From contig NC_054741.1 of assembly GCF_018143015.1 (NCBI RefSeq), positions 72,164,687 to 72,228,686 on the forward strand: a stretch of DNA of 64,000 nt, given 5' to 3'. Numbering within the stretch: position 1 is the stretch's first letter; each line of letters starts with the position of its first letter. Shown here in pieces: positions 42,590 to 63,090 of the stretch. The stretch is from Lytechinus variegatus. Its lineage: Eukaryota. The notes beneath the pieces are model-generated. The model had not been told where the DNA came from. It saw nothing but the letters and a program-made list of their open reading frames with translations, and did no database searches. Made by a program: the position numbers and the translations under genes.

Positions 42590-42778
42590 TGAAGTCTATA
42601 CGGCTGGTTGGTGGATTGACGCCCTGGGAGGGCCGAGTAGAAATACTTCATGGTGGTGAATGGGGAACAGTATGTGATGATTTATGGGATCTTGCCGATG
42701 CACATATTGTCTGTTTGAGCATGGGTTACGCATATTCTGTGGCCGCTTTAAGTGGAGCTCCGTTTGGTGAAGGCACAG
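42590..42778 (+). CDS. SRCR-LRR gene: SRCR domain A, N-terminal half exon (SIRLVGGLTPWEGRVEILHGGEWGTVCDDLWDLADAHIVCLSMGYAYSVAALSGAPFGEGTG)
   Basis: Matches the ORF 42460-42798 frame after acceptor tgacag| at 42587-42589. It carries the canonical SRCR start (RLVGG...GRVE..H.G.WGTVCDD.W....A.VVC..LG). Donor |gtaaga follows at 42779, leaving phase 1. Confidence 0.85.
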
Positions 42779-42789
42779 GTAAGATGAAA

Positions 42790-43470
42790 GGATTCTAGGA
42801 CATCTACCCCCTGGACATCTACCCCCCGGACATCCACCCCCTTAGGACAAGTACCCCCTAGGACAAGTACCCTCTAGGACATCTACCCCCCGGACATCTA
42901 CCCCCGGACATCCACCCCATTAGGACAAGTACCCCCTAGGACAAGTACCCTCTAGGACATCTACCCCCCGGACATCCACCCCCCGGACATCTACCCCCTG
43001 ACATTTTTTGTCAAATTGCTCGTTCGTTATGATCACTCACAGACGAGCAAAAATATATTTTATCAATTCAAAATCAATTTAAAGATGAGGGGGTAGATGT
43101 CCGGTGGGTGGATGTCCGGAGGGTGGGTGTCCGGGGGGTGGATGTCCGGGGGTAGATGTCCTGGGGGTGGATGTCCGGGGGGTAGATGTCCTGGGGGTGG
43201 ATGTCCTGGGGTGGATGTCCGGGGGGTAGATTTCCGGGGGTGGATATCCGGGGGGGGGGGGGGTAGATGTCCGGGGGTGGATGTCCGGAGGGTGGATGTC
43301 CGGGGGGTGGGTGGATGTCCGGGGGGTAGATTTCCGGGGGGTGGATGTCCGGGGGTAGATGTCCTAGAGGGTACTTTTCCTAGGGGGTACTTGTCCTAAG
43401 GGGGTGGATGTCCGGGGGGTGGAAGTCCGGGGGGTGGATGTCCGGGGGGTAGATGTCCAGGGGGTACATG
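42790..43470. mobile_element. Small foldback-type element in the intron splitting SRCR domain A: inverted arrays of a ggacatc(t/c)acccc(c) tandem unit around a 75-bp spacer
   Basis: 42790-43010 carries direct tandem repeats (ggacatctaccccctggacatctaccccccggacatccaccccc, interleaved with taggacaagtacccc). 43085-43470 is the reverse-complement array (gggggtagatgtccggtgggtggatgtccgg...ggggtacttgtcctaa). The spacer itself contains ttgctcgttcg...cagacgagcaa. Confidence 0.8.
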
Positions 43471-43512
43471 TCCGGATACTAATTAAAGGAATGCACGTAG
43501 AGGGTAGTTATA

Positions 43513-44501
43513 CAGTGCGTATCAAAAAGAAGTTTACACTTTGAAAAAATCCTGTAAAATTATACATTTGTAATATCCTGAAGATTTTTCCACATTTTAA
43601 CATTGGTACAGATCCATTTAAGCAAATGACGATATAACTATCGAAAAATATTTCCGCTTGAGTGAGCACCACTTACTTTTGAAAAGTTAGTGAAAACGGA
43701 TTTGCGCAGAACTTTGAAATAGCTATGCGAATAAAAGTAAACCTTTATCATGAAGAACACGTAGAATTTAGCAAGTAAAATTGATTTGGAGATATCTTTG
43801 ACATCTTTTAAGTTGTTTCCTTGCCCAATACACATCAAAGAGTGCATTGCGCCCTTCCCCCACTCCTCCACACACCAAAGCCATCAAGGCGATATTTGAT
43901 TTACACTGAGCTGTGATTTACATAAAATGAATTAGGCTTGATTTTCATTTTGTTAATCATTGTCAAGATTGGGAAAAGTGTGGAGAAACAAGTATTAAAT
44001 GAAAAATTAAATGTCAACCCCTTTTTAAATAATAAAAACTTAGTAAAAAAGTGCAGGAGATGTCTGATGTAAATTTTTGTTCAGATTCAGTTATGTCCTC
44101 TGATCCAGCTGGCACAAAAAGGGTAAAAGTTGTGCTTACTAAGTGTTGAAATTTCAATTCGGGTGGCAAATTTGTTTAAAAATGCTTGAATGTATCTGTT
44201 TTATCTTAATTGACTTAAAGTGCAAGGGTAATGTAGGAAAAATGTATCGCAGGGTAAGTTTGATTTTGCCCTTTGCCCTTGACACTGCGTGAAAACGAGC
44301 ATTTCTGCGCAAACAGATTTCTGCGAGCTTTACAAAAATGGACAGTGCTCACTCAATTGTAACATTCTGTCAAAACTTTTACTTTCATTGGATAGATGAG
44401 ACCCGTACCCAAGATTATATGTGAAAAAATTACCCGCATGTTGTATATTTTTTAATTCCCAGAGCTTTTTCAAAGTGTAAACTTTTTTTTGATACGCACT
44501 G
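43513..44501 (+). mobile_element. Non-autonomous Tc1/mariner-like element, copy 2 (about 989 bp), nested in the SRCR-A intron, with TA target-site duplication
   Basis: Same CAGTGCGTATCAAAAAGAAGTTTACAC terminal inverted repeats and internal sequence as 29701-30684, flanked by ta...ta. Confidence 0.85.
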
Positions 44502-44972
44502 TATATAGGGTGCCATTTCGGAATATTATCCTTTTACTAAATTGTTTATGAAAGGTTAATCTTTTTTTAAGATACTCATCGCCTTTTTATGCTGTATCAA
44601 CATAATTCTAAAGATCTTCGTTTATGATATCTACATTCATTGTCGAACAAAATGATATTTAACATTTGTTTCTAGAAATAGTGATATGAACACTTCTTTG
44701 ATAAATCGTGTGTAAAATAAGACTTATTTTAAAACCACGACAGGTCATAGTCCTCCAATTATGCTAATGGATTTTGACCTTGATGCATGGCTTCTCAATC
44801 TTAATTCCTTTTTAAGGTACAATTTAAGATCAAGATCCTGTAGTGATTCTCAGTGAATGAAAGCGCTGCATGAACATCCATCACTCGTGATTGCCCTTGT
44901 GTCTCTGACCTTGAATACATTTTGTATTTTGTATGTATTTTGTTTCTTGGTTTTATTTCTTTAATTTCAAAG

Positions 44973-45104
44973 GCGACATACTCCTAGACGCGGTAGAATG
45001 TTATGGGAACGAATCCTCCATCTTGGATTGCCTTCACGATGGAGTAGGAATTCATGACTGCAAACACGATGAAGACGCAGGAGTTCGCTGTTCTATAAGT
45101 GCAG
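44973..45104 (+). CDS. SRCR-LRR gene: SRCR domain A, C-terminal half exon ([44 protein letters not shown])
   Basis: Matches ORF 44933-45115, after acceptor ttcaaag| at phase 1. It carries the conserved SRCR C-half (L..V.C.G.ES.L..C.H.G.G.H.C.H.EDAGV.C). Donor cag|gtatca leaves phase 1, matching the next exon. Confidence 0.8.
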
Positions 45105-45724
45105 GTATCAACTAAATTTCTGGATGAAAAAAAATCGCCATTACCCCATTTTGTGCGAAGTTTAATGTAAATGCTGATTTTTGCTCGTAACTATGAAGCG
45201 GTCTTGTATAGTCCAAGTCAGTTCAACACAGGATCCGTCCCGGTAAAGTACGTACTTGGGGTTTGCATGAAAGAGACACAAACGAAATCAGAAACAGTCC
45301 ACAATCTTAGATTTTTAAAGAACCTTTTGGTACAGCATTTGAAACGTTTTGGTTCCAAACAGTATTCTATAACCGTTCGTTATACAAGGAATCATCTACG
45401 GTTCTTTATACAAGCTATGGTTTTTTGTTGCTGTGAATTCATAATCTAACAATGGATTGTTTCGTATTATAGGTTCATGTTTTGAAGAACCATAAACGAA
45501 ATGTTCTAATCAGCACATTGCTTTCTAAGAATGCAGGACTGTTGTAAAGACGACAGTAACACCAGGACGTTCTGACCAGACAAGACTTAGGTCTAAGGTA
45601 TTGTGTGTCACGGCTATCAGCTTTGTCCAATGAGAAGGCTCGGGCACCACTGGGAGATGAACCTTTCATGAAATAATTTATTTCGTATAAGTCTTATAAG
45701 TGTAAAAACTTTTATAAGTAACGG

Positions 45725-61528: not shown

Positions 61529-61600
61529 ATTGTTGCAAAATAACAACATTACTGAAATACCAGATAAAGCATTCATCAACCTGTCTCGCCTTACAACTTT
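61529..61600 (+). CDS. SRCR-LRR gene: LRR exon 11 (LLQNNNITEIPDKAFINLSRLTT)
   Basis: 72-nt phase-2 exon between acceptor tgtttcag| and donor |gtaagt. Confidence 0.85.
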
Positions 61601-61903
61601 GTAAGTGTGCCCATCTAATTTGTATGAGAAGTGTGAGGATGAATGTTTGTGTAACGTAAGCACTGGGGAGTGTTGATTCGGTGTAGGTCCAATTGAAATA
61701 ACTTTTTTAGGTGTATAGTTGTTTTCTTTGCTTTTTTAAACTTCTGTTTGTATGATAAAAAATGACTCCAACACACACATCAATAATAGTTCTAGATTGT
61801 AATATCGTTCTTTCAACGCCCTCTTTTACATCTCATATTCTGGAACAATATTTTGTTGCTTAATTTCGAAAACTTACCCTTTTTATCATATTTTTTATTC
61901 CAG

Positions 61904-61975
61904 GAATATATCATCCAATTCAATCACATATTTGCAAAATGGTGCGTTTCTGGGACAGGAAAACTTGGAATATTT
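61904..61975 (+). CDS. SRCR-LRR gene: LRR exon 12 (NISSNSITYLQNGAFLGQENLEY)
   Basis: 72-nt phase-2 exon between acceptor ttattccag| and donor |gtaagt. Confidence 0.85.
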
Positions 61976-62392
61976 GTAAGTGCCTTTCTATCTAAGCAGA
62001 ATAACATTTCTTACTGTAAAAATGCACTAAATGCCATGAATCACTGTTCTTATTAAAGTAAAGATGCAACGTGTATTGACAAGTAGACTGTTTTCCAAAT
62101 ACTATACTCGATAGCGACCATCAATATCATAATGGTATAGTACACGAAATGAAACACTTCCTAAATATAATTTCTGTTTAAAATATGAAGTGATAATAAT
62201 AACATTAATATGATAAAAAGCGTGATCACTAAGGAGATGACGATGCTAATGACAAGATTTGTGATGATGATGAAAGCAAAACAAACTACAACAATGAAAC
62301 TGATGAAAATAACAATGTAAAGAGGAGACTGGATGAATGGTGCTGCCAAATGTAAACATCTCGGTTTTATTTCGACATGTTTATTTGCACAG

Positions 62393-62464
62393 AGACTTGG
62401 GATACAACAAGATCAAGAGTATCGAAGCTGAATCATTTGCAAATCTGAGTAACCTACTCTATCT
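62393..62464 (+). CDS. SRCR-LRR gene: LRR exon 13 (DLGYNKIKSIEAESFANLSNLLY)
   Basis: 72-nt phase-2 exon between acceptor tttgcacag| and donor |gtgagt. Confidence 0.85.
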
Positions 62465-63018
62465 GTGAGTATTGTTCTTGTTTTTATCTTTAATTATCAA
62501 TTCAAACAAAATGTGTATCAACACCAAAAGCGAGTTGCATATTTTTTTGCCAGAGTTTCTCGATGTGTTAAGTGTCAATGGCATAACTGTATTGCCAGAG
62601 TTTTGTTTATTTGCCAGAGTTTTCTATGGCAAAAGTTTTTTATGCAATAGGACCCAGTGGGGAAAATCATACAAATGACATACGTAGTATATTTTTTACT
62701 CTTAGAAATCGAGAGCATACTTCTTAAAAGTACACTATGAACTTACATGATATTTTGATTTTACAACAAATTTTCCGATCTCATGATATTCTTAATCCCT
62801 TATTGCCATCATTAGTACCAATGTGTGAACATGTTTGAAAAAAGTAATCGGAAGGAATTTCATATAAACATAAAGTAAACTATATTTTGTTAAGCTAACA
62901 AGATTAACATGAAATGTGAATTATGAATTAATATATATATTTTTCAGCATGAAATGTTGTTTGATATAAAATATGAAAAGTAGATCAATACCACTCTATT
63001 GTATTCTGTTTTCTTCAG

Positions 63019-63090
63019 ATTTCTACTGGATCTTGATTTAGACACAATTTCCTACGAAATCATGAACGATCTAACTGGACTCAAAGCTCT
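63019..63090 (+). CDS. SRCR-LRR gene: LRR exon 14 (FLLDLDLDTISYEIMNDLTGLKA); the gene continues beyond the window
   Basis: The 72-nt phase-2 exon lies between acceptor tcttcag| and donor |gtaagt and leaves an open phase-2 junction. No stop codon or terminal exon is seen before 64000. Confidence 0.8.

Follow-up and report, generated by a model that had tools for sequence, protein, structure and literature searches.

A sea urchin gene predicted to join four SRCR domains, leucine-rich repeats and a 7TM domain in one LGR-type receptor

The + strand of the window, the whole 64,000-nucleotide stretch of Lytechinus variegatus DNA analysed here, carries with a probability of about 0.8 the first 24 exons (871 codons, 27.9-64 kb) of a single SRCR-LRR-7TM gene that encodes an LGR-type GPCR. 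The full protein very probably has ~1260 aa in the order signal peptide, four SRCR domains, linker, LRRs, Cys hinge and 7TM; in all likelihood ~15-16 leucine-rich repeats precede the short Cys hinge, and the 7TM is most probably of the rhodopsin type, LGR clade, and encoded by one terminal exon just past the end of the window. With good confidence the gene can be placed in a group of echinoderm-expanded LGR-like receptors, annotated at NCBI as 'GRL101-like' or 'relaxin receptor 2-like'. Since the order SRCR-LRR-7TM is found in the orthologue and the paralogues and RXFP1 is the closest solved structure, we regard the product as an LGR-type GPCR in which SRCR replaces LDLa. The first-pass annotation had already read SRCR array and LRR solenoid as one gene, possibly LGR-like, and this is supported by the models XP_063966265.1 and XP_041453757.1.

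Exons in the window and the linker

Table 1. Exons assigned to the predicted SRCR-LRR-7TM gene in the window
Feature	Position	Strand	Basis
Candidate exon 1 (ATG and signal peptide MFNMFFSVVSIVCLVFFAGNVHFTETLSINEEPR)	27942-28044	+	tblastn and direct reading
SRCR-A 5' exon, 189 nt, phase 1-1	42590-42778	+	Pfam, AG/GT sites, L. pictus copy
SRCR-A 3' exon, 132 nt, phase 1-1	44973-45104	+	AG/GT sites, L. pictus copy
SRCR-B single exon, 333 nt, phase 1-1	46369-46701	+	Pfam, L. pictus copy
SRCR-C single exon, 309 nt, phase 1-1	47025-47333	+	Pfam, L. pictus copy
SRCR-D single exon, 306 nt, phase 1-1	47982-48287	+	Pfam, L. pictus copy
Linker micro-exon 1, 48 nt, EDVCITGLCETNIFPK, phase 1-1	49348-49395	+	AG/GT sites, homologues
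Linker micro-exon 2, 54 nt, GTGKCIPVVQNCFVDGTW, phase 1-1	49731-49784	+	S. purpuratus and L. pictus counterparts
Linker exon overlooked in the first-pass annotation, 58 nt, GLFCIPQRPSVHKSAAIEC-M, phase 1 to 2	50346-50403	+	tblastn
75-nt exon, GLEDYKSENMTRQIILDRQRNVKN-L, phase 2-2	52081-52155	+	83% identity to S. purpuratus; L. pictus copy
LRR exon 1	52977-53048	+	72 nt, phase 2-2; Pfam, L. pictus copy
LRR exon 2	54034-54105	+	72 nt; L. pictus copy
LRR exon 3	54582-54653	+	72 nt; L. pictus copy
LRR exon 4	55353-55424	+	72 nt; L. pictus copy
LRR exon 5	56014-56085	+	72 nt; L. pictus copy
LRR exon 6	56412-56483	+	72 nt; L. pictus copy
LRR exon 7	57639-57710	+	72 nt; L. pictus copy
LRR exon 8	57883-57954	+	72 nt; L. 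pictus copy
LRR exon 9	60357-60428	+	72 nt; L. pictus copy
LRR exon 10	60917-60988	+	72 nt; holds internal Met where XP_041456566.1 begins
LRR exon 11	61529-61600	+	72 nt; 100% identity to XP_041456566.1
LRR exon 12	61904-61975	+	72 nt; 100% identity to XP_041456566.1
LRR exon 13	62393-62464	+	72 nt; 100% identity to XP_041456566.1
LRR exon 14, last in window	63019-63090	+	72 nt; 100% identity to XP_041456566.1

AG/GT sites flank each of the 23 internal exons, their phases are compatible, and the 24-exon model runs through its 871 codons with no stop codon and no frameshift. The four SRCR domains, spread over five exons, are of the six-cysteine type, and the best whole-protein matches of this half are 'DMBT1-like' (40-53% identity); the SRCR-B exon holds an additional CC-containing insert. 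The 14 LRR exons encode one LRR each and are uniformly in phase 2-2. The SRCR exons (two for SRCR-A, one each for -B, -C and -D), the two Cys-containing micro-exons and the one-LRR exons of the first-pass annotation were confirmed exactly. It had also proposed a Pfam search of the conceptual translation, and in the in-window protein SRCR (four stretches, E 7.5e-111) and LRR_8 (eight stretches, E 9.9e-86) were indeed found far beyond chance.

The SRCR array and the LRRs are connected by a linker of ~75 aa with six cysteines, encoded by three micro-exons and one 75-nt exon. Micro-exon 1 is kept in Strongylocentrotus purpuratus, in Lytechinus pictus and in the paralogues P0242 (L. pictus) and P0371 (XP_041453757.1). 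The 58-nt exon encodes GLFCIPQRPSVHKSAAIECM and came to light in a tblastn search with P0073 of S. purpuratus (E 2.3e-6); the L. pictus model XP_063966265.1 includes it, its AG/GT sites are kept in that species, and the paralogue XP_041453757.1 has a counterpart ending in '...SAALKCM'. It is this exon that converts phase 1 to 2, a change formerly ascribed to a bridging exon at 51999-52155. Of the latter, the last 75 nt are an exon, whose acceptor, polypyrimidine tract and TACTAAC branch point (52044-52050) are conserved in L. pictus; the upstream 82 nt are intronic. The supposed acceptor at 51999 belongs to an inserted repeat of ~590 bp (51441-52030), which is specific to L. variegatus and missing from the orthologous L. 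pictus site, and neither the S. purpuratus nor the L. pictus proteins contain the peptide of 51999-52080 (AYLFQSF...RCNCLSRR, + strand, with a 'CNC' motif); this segment was rejected as an exon. The 75-nt exon encodes either the flank N-terminal to the LRRs or a first LRR of irregular type. Pfam gave no match to the linker, and hence no canonical LRRNT cap.

One gene or two

The L. pictus orthologue XP_063966265.1 (P0360, 'relaxin receptor 2-like', 1183 aa) has SRCR, linker, LRR and 7TM in one model, and the 24-exon model aligns to it gaplessly with 95.3% identity over 795 aa. SRCR plus LRR architectures, which the first-pass annotation had suggested looking for in echinoderm and amphioxus proteomes, occur in gene models of L. 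pictus, S. purpuratus and an L. variegatus paralogue. The latter, XP_041453757.1 (1201 aa), has four SRCR domains, LRR and 7tm_1; the L. pictus paralogue has the SRCR-LRR-7TM order as well. In S. purpuratus, signal peptide, four SRCR domains, LRR and 7TM are combined in the older model P0369 (1132 aa), and in P0073/P0367 four SRCR domains are joined to the first LRRs via the same linker exons. The orthologous cluster of the sister species L. pictus (loci L003, L004, L005) contains at least four head-to-tail SRCR-LRR-7TM units with the same exon order. Every model joining SRCR to LRR/7TM is an automated gene prediction, and we infer the co-splicing of SRCR and LRR exons from gene models, phases and conservation.

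Other annotations divide the locus. RefSeq for L. variegatus has the SRCR-only model P0359 and the GPCR XP_041456566.1 (P0122), and the current S. purpuratus annotation has SRCR-only models (P0364-P0366) and the GPCR model P0241, which pairs with P0365. Taken at face value, these describe two adjacent genes, one for a secreted SRCR-only protein (27.9-49.4 kb) and one for a separate LRR-7TM receptor (52-64+ kb), with the phase continuity between them as a relic of exon shuffling. In both SRCR-only models the last exon runs on past the donor of micro-exon 1, as it might in a genuine soluble isoform made by intron retention or alternative polyadenylation, and a two-gene unit duplicated in tandem would give the same repeated pattern. 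However, the SRCR-only models have no proper end and the N-terminus of P0359 is not a signal peptide. XP_041456566.1 likewise lacks a signal peptide, and with an internal Met of LRR exon 10 as its start it accounts for neither the nine in-frame LRR exons upstream nor the four linker exons. Furthermore, Lytechinus, Strongylocentrotus and the paralogues have all kept the sequence, length and splice sites of the linker exons, and the newer L. pictus annotation as well as the paralogue XP_041453757.1 join all parts. Two separate genes are therefore unlikely.

A decaying or unexpressed duplicate would fit a family that is expanded in tandem, whose annotation differs between species and releases and whose introns hold repeat insertions and an inverted exon fragment. 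We consider a pseudogene very improbable, since the reading frame is open throughout, neither of the two Lytechinus species has lost a splice site and the 7TM motifs are intact. In L. pictus, copies of 23 of the 23 exons have kept their length and splice sites (the SRCR-A 5' exon with 94% nt identity). Against this species dN/dS is 0.185 overall, 0.245 in the SRCR part and 0.10 in the LRR part (dS 0.116), and purifying selection is shown for the predicted SRCR part and LRR part alike.

The two ends of the gene

The first-pass annotation had found no signal-peptide exon upstream of 42590. There is now a candidate, which opens with ATG, encodes a hydrophobic core and has a GT donor whose phase, 1, fits exon 2; the N-terminus of P0369 matches it in tblastn with 57% identity (E 0.014). 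It is separated from exon 2 by an intron of 14.5 kb, and this putative exon is the least secure element of the gene model.

At the other end, the expectation that the coding sequence continues past 63090 is borne out by a donor in phase 2, with the next exon just outside the window. XP_041456566.1 ('GRL101-like') is 100% identical over LRR exons 11-14 and then enters the Cys hinge and a rhodopsin-type 7tm_1. By colinearity with L. pictus L004, in which the window end corresponds to position 32800 and the terminal exon starts at 32938, the exon for last LRR, Cys hinge, 7TM and tail begins ~140 nt past position 64000. As the 7TM exon is outside the window, its link to the gene rests on identity to the database protein and on this colinearity. 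Pfam found four SRCR domains, LRR and 7tm_1 (E 5.5e-30) in the reconstructed full-length protein. Among solved structures, the LRR-hinge-7TM part scores best with RXFP1 (7tmw_R, E 2.7e-61), ahead of FSHR, LGR4, LHCGR and TSHR; with the 7TM alone, RXFP1 gives E 1.4e-41. Taken by itself, the LRR region has matches to TLR3, podocan and LRRC70-type proteins as well (~30% identity), which would fit a single-pass LRR pattern-recognition receptor, TLR-like or otherwise, with TIR or plain TM downstream. However, the identical database protein leads into 7tm_1 and not TIR, and the 7TM exon of L. pictus follows the last LRR exon after ~1.07 kb. We give next to no weight to such a receptor: of the regions formerly envisaged downstream, 7TM stands, and TIR and plain TM are excluded.

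Relation to known receptors and possible function

The predicted receptor shares with RXFP1 and RXFP2 (type C1 LGRs) an LRR ectodomain with a non-LRR Cys-rich module ahead, the motifs DRY, CWxP and NPxxY, all intact in XP_041456566.1, a hydrophobic-Pro-hydrophobic element after the ECL2 cysteine and, in the full-length urchin models, the NCBI name 'relaxin receptor 2-like'. It differs in having no LDLa by Pfam, but four SRCR domains and the six-Cys linker instead, in its ~15-16 LRRs compared with 10 in RXFP1, and in having hinge and 7TM in a single terminal exon. In addition, ECL2, whose Cys is paired with that of TM3, reads C-I-G-L-P-L, a two-residue insertion compared with the LGR consensus, and is followed by a further insertion of ~27 aa.

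The long LRR horseshoe is also seen in LGR4/5/6 (type B), LGR4 being among the top solved matches. In the vertebrate LGR4/5/6 genes, as in the urchin gene, each LRR occupies a 72-nt exon of constant phase and the 7TM is in the last exon. In contrast, type B receptors have no N-terminal module, their ligands are R-spondins and their 7TM is less like the urchin 7TM than that of RXFP1. GRL101 of Lymnaea stagnalis (type C2) has the same order of N-terminal Cys-rich module array, LRRs and LGR 7TM, and the GPCR half of the urchin gene bears the corresponding label, but the GRL101 modules are LDLa repeats and not SRCR; GRL101 has 12 LDLa and 6 LRR (PMC8286064). One true GRL101 orthologue is reported per ambulacrarian (PMC8286064); the urchin gene is therefore not that orthologue but a member of a separate echinoderm group that has expanded.

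SRCR domains in a GPCR ectodomain are known from adhesion GPCRs of amphioxus and echinoderms (PMC2246102), and for S. purpuratus and A. planci there are counts of 7tm_2 in SRCR proteins (PMC10855680). These have a secretin/adhesion-class 7tm_2 with a GPS site, whereas the urchin receptor has a rhodopsin-class 7tm_1 with LRRs. Tandem SRCR domains on symmetric phase-1 exons are a feature shared with DMBT1 and the sea urchin SRCR repertoire; the urchin receptor has no CUB or ZP, its SRCR domains have six versus eight cysteines, and its array would be attached to an LRR-7TM receptor and not secreted.

The receptor would reside in the plasma membrane with SRCR array and LRR horseshoe outside, and a ligand would be bound by the LRRs, the SRCR array or both. 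By analogy to RXFP1, for which an ECL2/hinge mechanism and a C-phi-P-phi motif are described (bioRxiv 10.1101/2022.01.22.477343), and to the glycoprotein-hormone receptors, binding could rearrange the hinge and extracellular loop 2 and so activate a heterotrimeric G protein. The SRCR array would sit where type C LGRs have their LDLa module(s) and may serve as an additional ligand-binding arm or as an activation module. The tandem expansion fits a fast-evolving recognition role, immune or chemosensory.

The searchable literature yielded no description of an SRCR-LRR-7TM receptor. The design is real and unusual, as the first-pass annotation had recognised; 'novel' was an overstatement, as automated RefSeq models in the public annotations already predict it. 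The co-occurrence of its domains has, moreover, been tallied in a supplementary table.

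Exon structure of the gene

Every exon was re-derived from the sequence itself, and the coordinates of the first-pass annotation proved right for 22 exons. Each 72-nt exon encodes one LxxLxLxxNxI-type repeat. Both domain families proposed there were matched in the joined in-window protein far beyond chance (Pfam: SRCR, PF00530, in four stretches, E 7.5e-111; LRR_8, E 9.9e-86). As read from the model, there are six conserved cysteines per SRCR domain, and SRCR-B has two extra ones in an insert. In the linker, the Pfam search matched no family and no LRRNT.

Exons of the gene and further features of the window
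Feature	Position	Strand	Remarks
Candidate signal-peptide exon	27942-28044	+	ATG-initiated hydrophobic leader, GT donor in phase 1
SRCR-A, two exons	42590-42778 and 44973-45104	+	Phase 1 to 1, AG/GT sites
SRCR-B, single exon	46369-46701	+	Phase 1 to 1, AG/GT sites
SRCR-C, single exon	47025-47333	+	Phase 1 to 1, AG/GT sites
SRCR-D, single exon	47982-48287	+	Phase 1 to 1, AG/GT sites
Micro-exons, two	49348-49395 and 49731-49784	+	Phase 1 to 1
Missed exon, 58 nt, GLFCIPQRPSVHKSAAIECM	50346-50403	+	Alignment of P0073
Dispersed repeat, ~590 bp	51441-52030		In the intron before the 75-nt exon
True part of the "bridging exon", last 75 nt	52081-52155	+	tblastn alignment of P0073
LRR exons, 14, each exactly 72 nt	52977-53048 to 63019-63090	+	Phase 2 to 2
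ORF with sub-threshold myosin head likeness	2359-2727	+	PF00063, E 0.0074, 15 bits (cut-off 33.3)
ORF with aspartyl-protease segment	19354-19731	-	PF00026, E 2.6e-11
68-nt-period tandem arrays, two	31421-31693 and 34154-34491		Opposite orientation, ~2.5 kb apart
15-nt tandem arrays, two, G+C-rich	42794-43004 and 43089-43475		Opposite orientation, GGACATCTACCCCCT and complement
Inverted SRCR-D fragment, ~70 nt	54794-54862	-	DYAVFLVNGSTYLEGRVKVGYLG

The bridging exon had been placed at 51999-52155. Its last 75 nt stand and its 5' end does not, as judged from comparison with L. pictus and from the alignment of P0073 (XP_011673027.1 from S. purpuratus), which is 75% identical to the model and spans the four SRCR domains, the linker and then three LRRs. 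The acceptor at 51998 is false: it lies inside the repeat insertion, which created it and of which L. pictus has no copy at the orthologous position. What L. pictus does keep there is the true acceptor of the 75-nt exon, with the pyrimidine tract and a TACTAAC branch point that go with it. A 74%-identical copy of the repeat is found at 760-1350 of the L. pictus locus L004. The shift from phase 1 to phase 2 ascribed to the bridging exon is made by the 58-nt exon instead.

No signal-peptide exon had been seen upstream of 42590, but a candidate has now been located there. Its donor phase is the one that exon 2 needs, and the N-terminus of P0369, an older S. purpuratus model (1132 aa; signal peptide, four SRCR domains, LRR and 7TM), matches 27975-28043 with E 0.014. 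This candidate is the weakest part of the model. Apart from that match and the inverted SRCR-D fragment of 70 nt, tblastn searches on both strands found no additional SRCR exon, and none for a 7TM or a TIR, in the rest of the window.

The terminal 7TM exon and the integrity of the locus

The L. variegatus model P0122 (XP_041456566.1, "GRL101-like") is 100% identical over its overlap with the window, and tblastn puts this identity on LRR exons 11-14. After "...DLTGLKA" it continues with "LSTSDNRLCC...", a Cys hinge and then a 7tm_1 domain. According to genomic contigs from relatives, hinge, 7TM and tail form one exon; this terminal exon opens with one more LRR, beyond the 14 in-window LRR exons. 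L. pictus loci were used for the genomic context around the gene. At L004, the hinge/7TM exon begins at 32938, 1065 nt past the final LRR exon. Position 32800 of L004 lines up with the end of the window, and by this colinearity the 7TM exon starts ~140 nt past the window end. The assignment of the 7TM to this gene is based on the identity of P0122 to LRR exons 11-14 together with the colinearity in L. pictus. The first-pass annotation had considered a 7TM or a TIR region downstream; 7tm_1 follows the LRRs in P0122, at L004 and in the reconstructed protein.

The proposal that an SRCR array and an LRR solenoid are joined in one LGR-like gene is borne out by relatives with the same order of domains. 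P0360, the L. pictus orthologue (XP_063966265.1, "relaxin receptor 2-like", 1183 aa), comprises the larger part of SRCR-A, SRCR-B to D, four linker exons, 14 LRRs, hinge and 7TM, and is 95.3% identical to the model across 795 residues without a gap. P0371 (XP_041453757.1, 1201 aa), a paralogue from the L. variegatus chromosome that also carries this gene, has four SRCR domains, LRR, 7tm_1 and a similar Cys linker. On L. pictus CM073227.1 (13.56-13.75 Mb, ~190 kb; loci L003, L004 and L005), at least four head-to-tail units follow the order four SRCR exons, LRR exons, single 7TM exon. In L. pictus, not one of the 23 internal exons differs in length or has lost its AG/GT sites. Relative to that species, dN/dS is 0.185 overall, 0.245 for SRCR and 0.10 for LRR (dS 0.116), with zero stop codons, and both halves are therefore constrained coding sequence. 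Taken together, these comparative and structural findings argue that the SRCR and LRR-7TM parts are one real and conserved gene.

The locus may also be read as an SRCR-only gene next to a separate GPCR gene, or as giving rise to a soluble SRCR isoform: the L. variegatus and the current S. purpuratus annotation both split it, and in the SRCR-only models XP_041453752.1 (L. variegatus) and XP_030846933.1 (S. purpuratus) the final stretch runs on across the micro-exon 1 donor (49395/49396). However, the GPCR model P0122, whose first residue is an internal Met in LRR exon 10, has no signal peptide and leaves thirteen upstream in-frame exons without a model. We read the split annotations as artefacts; the read-through could be a soluble isoform with four SRCR domains or a shared annotation artefact. 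Logan contigs carrying P0240, a close 7TM relative, were unspliced genomic pieces, and no spliced SRCR-LRR contig was found in this resource. Since the locus is split in two annotations, SRCR and GPCR family censuses probably miscount such genes.

At L003, the annotated start of XP_063962345.1 is preceded by three SRCR exons, and at L005 another set of SRCR exons starts ~7 kb past a 7TM exon. P0254 (S. purpuratus XP_011673020.1, "neuropeptide FF receptor 2-like") is a chimeric model that runs from the 7TM exon of one family member into the first two SRCR domains of the gene that follows it downstream. The order 7TM-then-SRCR was rejected as a real architecture, being a fusion of two neighbouring genes; P0254 is evidence for a tandem array and for mis-annotation in this family.

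Relation to LGRs and a possible mode of action

LGRs are usually sorted by their ectodomain into types A, B and C, and to our knowledge the only recognised N-terminal additions are LDLa modules. A type C receptor is expected to carry one or more of these at the N-terminus and to be activated by an insulin/relaxin-like peptide. In the reconstructed full-length protein, 7tm_1 was matched with E 5.5e-30, and the tandem LRR ectodomain sits directly N-terminal of the 7TM, as LGR membership requires. P0122 and P0360 share the Cys-containing hinge "STSDNRLCCLLSHSENVTCARTSPPSPLDTCGSLYP" before TM1, and P0122 has the DRY, CWxP and NPxxY motifs as well as the TM3-ECL2 cysteine pair. In its 7TM, LRR ectodomain and hinge, the predicted protein has the defining features of an LGR. 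The LGR-like reading of the first-pass annotation is correct, once one exon boundary is moved, a further exon is inserted and a candidate for the first exon is put in front. Among solved structures, LRR-hinge-7TM matched RXFP1 first (7tmw_R, E 2.7e-61), followed by FSHR, LGR4, LHCGR and TSHR. Hinge and 7TM alone gave E 1.4e-41 for RXFP1 versus ~1e-30 for TSHR, FSHR and LHCGR; these sequence scores suggest that the 7TM resembles those of relaxin receptors more closely than those of LGRs of types A and B. The LDLa module of type C is lacking: Pfam found no Ldl_recept_a match in the in-window protein or the full reconstruction.

The SRCR superfamily is defined by domains of ~100-110 aa with a conserved pattern of cysteines, and by its four SRCR domains the protein belongs to it as well. 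DMBT1, the RefSeq name for the SRCR half, combines an SRCR array with CUB and zona pellucida domains. CUB and ZP were not matched by Pfam in the in-window protein or the full reconstruction, and because both are absent the protein is not DMBT1; the name reflects SRCR similarity only. A Toll-like receptor, which has an LRR ectodomain, a single TM and a cytoplasmic TIR, was rejected on account of the downstream 7TM. Ambulacrarians are reported to have a single true orthologue of GRL101 (PMC8286064), and the gene described here is a different one.

Within the same echinoderm group there are also members that have LRRs only, or CUB and LDLa (P0279, for example, has LDLa); the group therefore varies in its N-terminal module. 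When a local SRCR HMM was run on the 150 best representatives of clusters in the 7TM family, the only matches were P0371 and the chimeric P0254. Amphioxus has adhesion GPCRs in which SRCR domains have been noted (PMC2246102). For S. purpuratus, Table S5 of a 2024 SRCR census counts 8 cases of "leucine rich repeat" and 2 of "7 transmembrane receptor (rhodopsin family)", with small such counts for Nematostella and Mnemiopsis too, all given without discussion (PMC10855680). A literature search that left aside most subscription journals found no paper describing an SRCR-bearing LGR; the counts in Table S5 and the amphioxus adhesion GPCRs come closest. The architecture is already in the databases as automated predictions, unremarked. 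The gene is real and conserved, and it is unusual among receptor genes: a known kind of receptor in a new form and not a new kind.

In RXFP1, ECL2 (C-F-P-L) fills the orthosteric pocket and is restrained by the LRRs and hinge until ligand binding releases it; activation requires the LDLa module, and a C-phi-P-phi motif in ECL2 is common to all LGRs (bioRxiv 10.1101/2022.01.22.477343). In the sea urchin protein the sequence is C-I-G-L-P-L, in which phi-P-phi is present two residues further from the Cys, a form of the motif that is also seen in other echinoderm family members; an insertion of ~27 residues follows it. Its SRCR array stands at the position of LDLa in type C LGRs. We infer an LGR-type mechanism, in which the LRR horseshoe, the SRCR array or both would capture an extracellular ligand, hinge and ECL2 would be rearranged, and the G protein would be activated. 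It is tempting to speculate, with a probability of roughly 0.3, that camarodont sea urchins have a tandemly expanded LGR subfamily in which an SRCR array replaces LDLa, so that G-protein signalling would be coupled directly to the SRCR-type recognition of ligands from microbes or from elsewhere in the environment. Such a protein would serve in pattern recognition or chemosensation as a receptor of the GPCR class, and its SRCR array would be the ligand-capturing or activation arm.

The sea urchin SRCR repertoire is very large and usually treated as immune. If the SRCR–LRR–7TM design is conserved, constrained and tandemly duplicated, it would tie this repertoire to GPCR signalling, the N-terminal module of type-C-like LGRs would be exchangeable by phase-1 exon shuffling, and a natural variant would be at hand for testing the tethered-module activation model of RXFP1.

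Other features of the window

The aspartyl-protease segment is of the cathepsin-D/pepsin type, and its ORF probably belongs, as an exon, to a neighbouring gene that lies upstream of exon 1. The myosin head likeness may be due to chance. The inverted fragment, which sits in the intron that separates LRR exons 3 and 4, duplicates the 5' end of the SRCR-D exon together with the acceptor. This is exactly the point at which colinearity with L. pictus is interrupted, so the fragment is an L. variegatus-specific insertion. The 68-nt-period arrays belong to the first intron, which is 14.5 kb long, and resemble the subterminal repeats of a DNA transposon. The window is clearly eukaryotic and has a G+C content of ~35%; the 15-nt arrays just after the first SRCR-A exon cause a local peak of 0.449 and spurious long ORFs.
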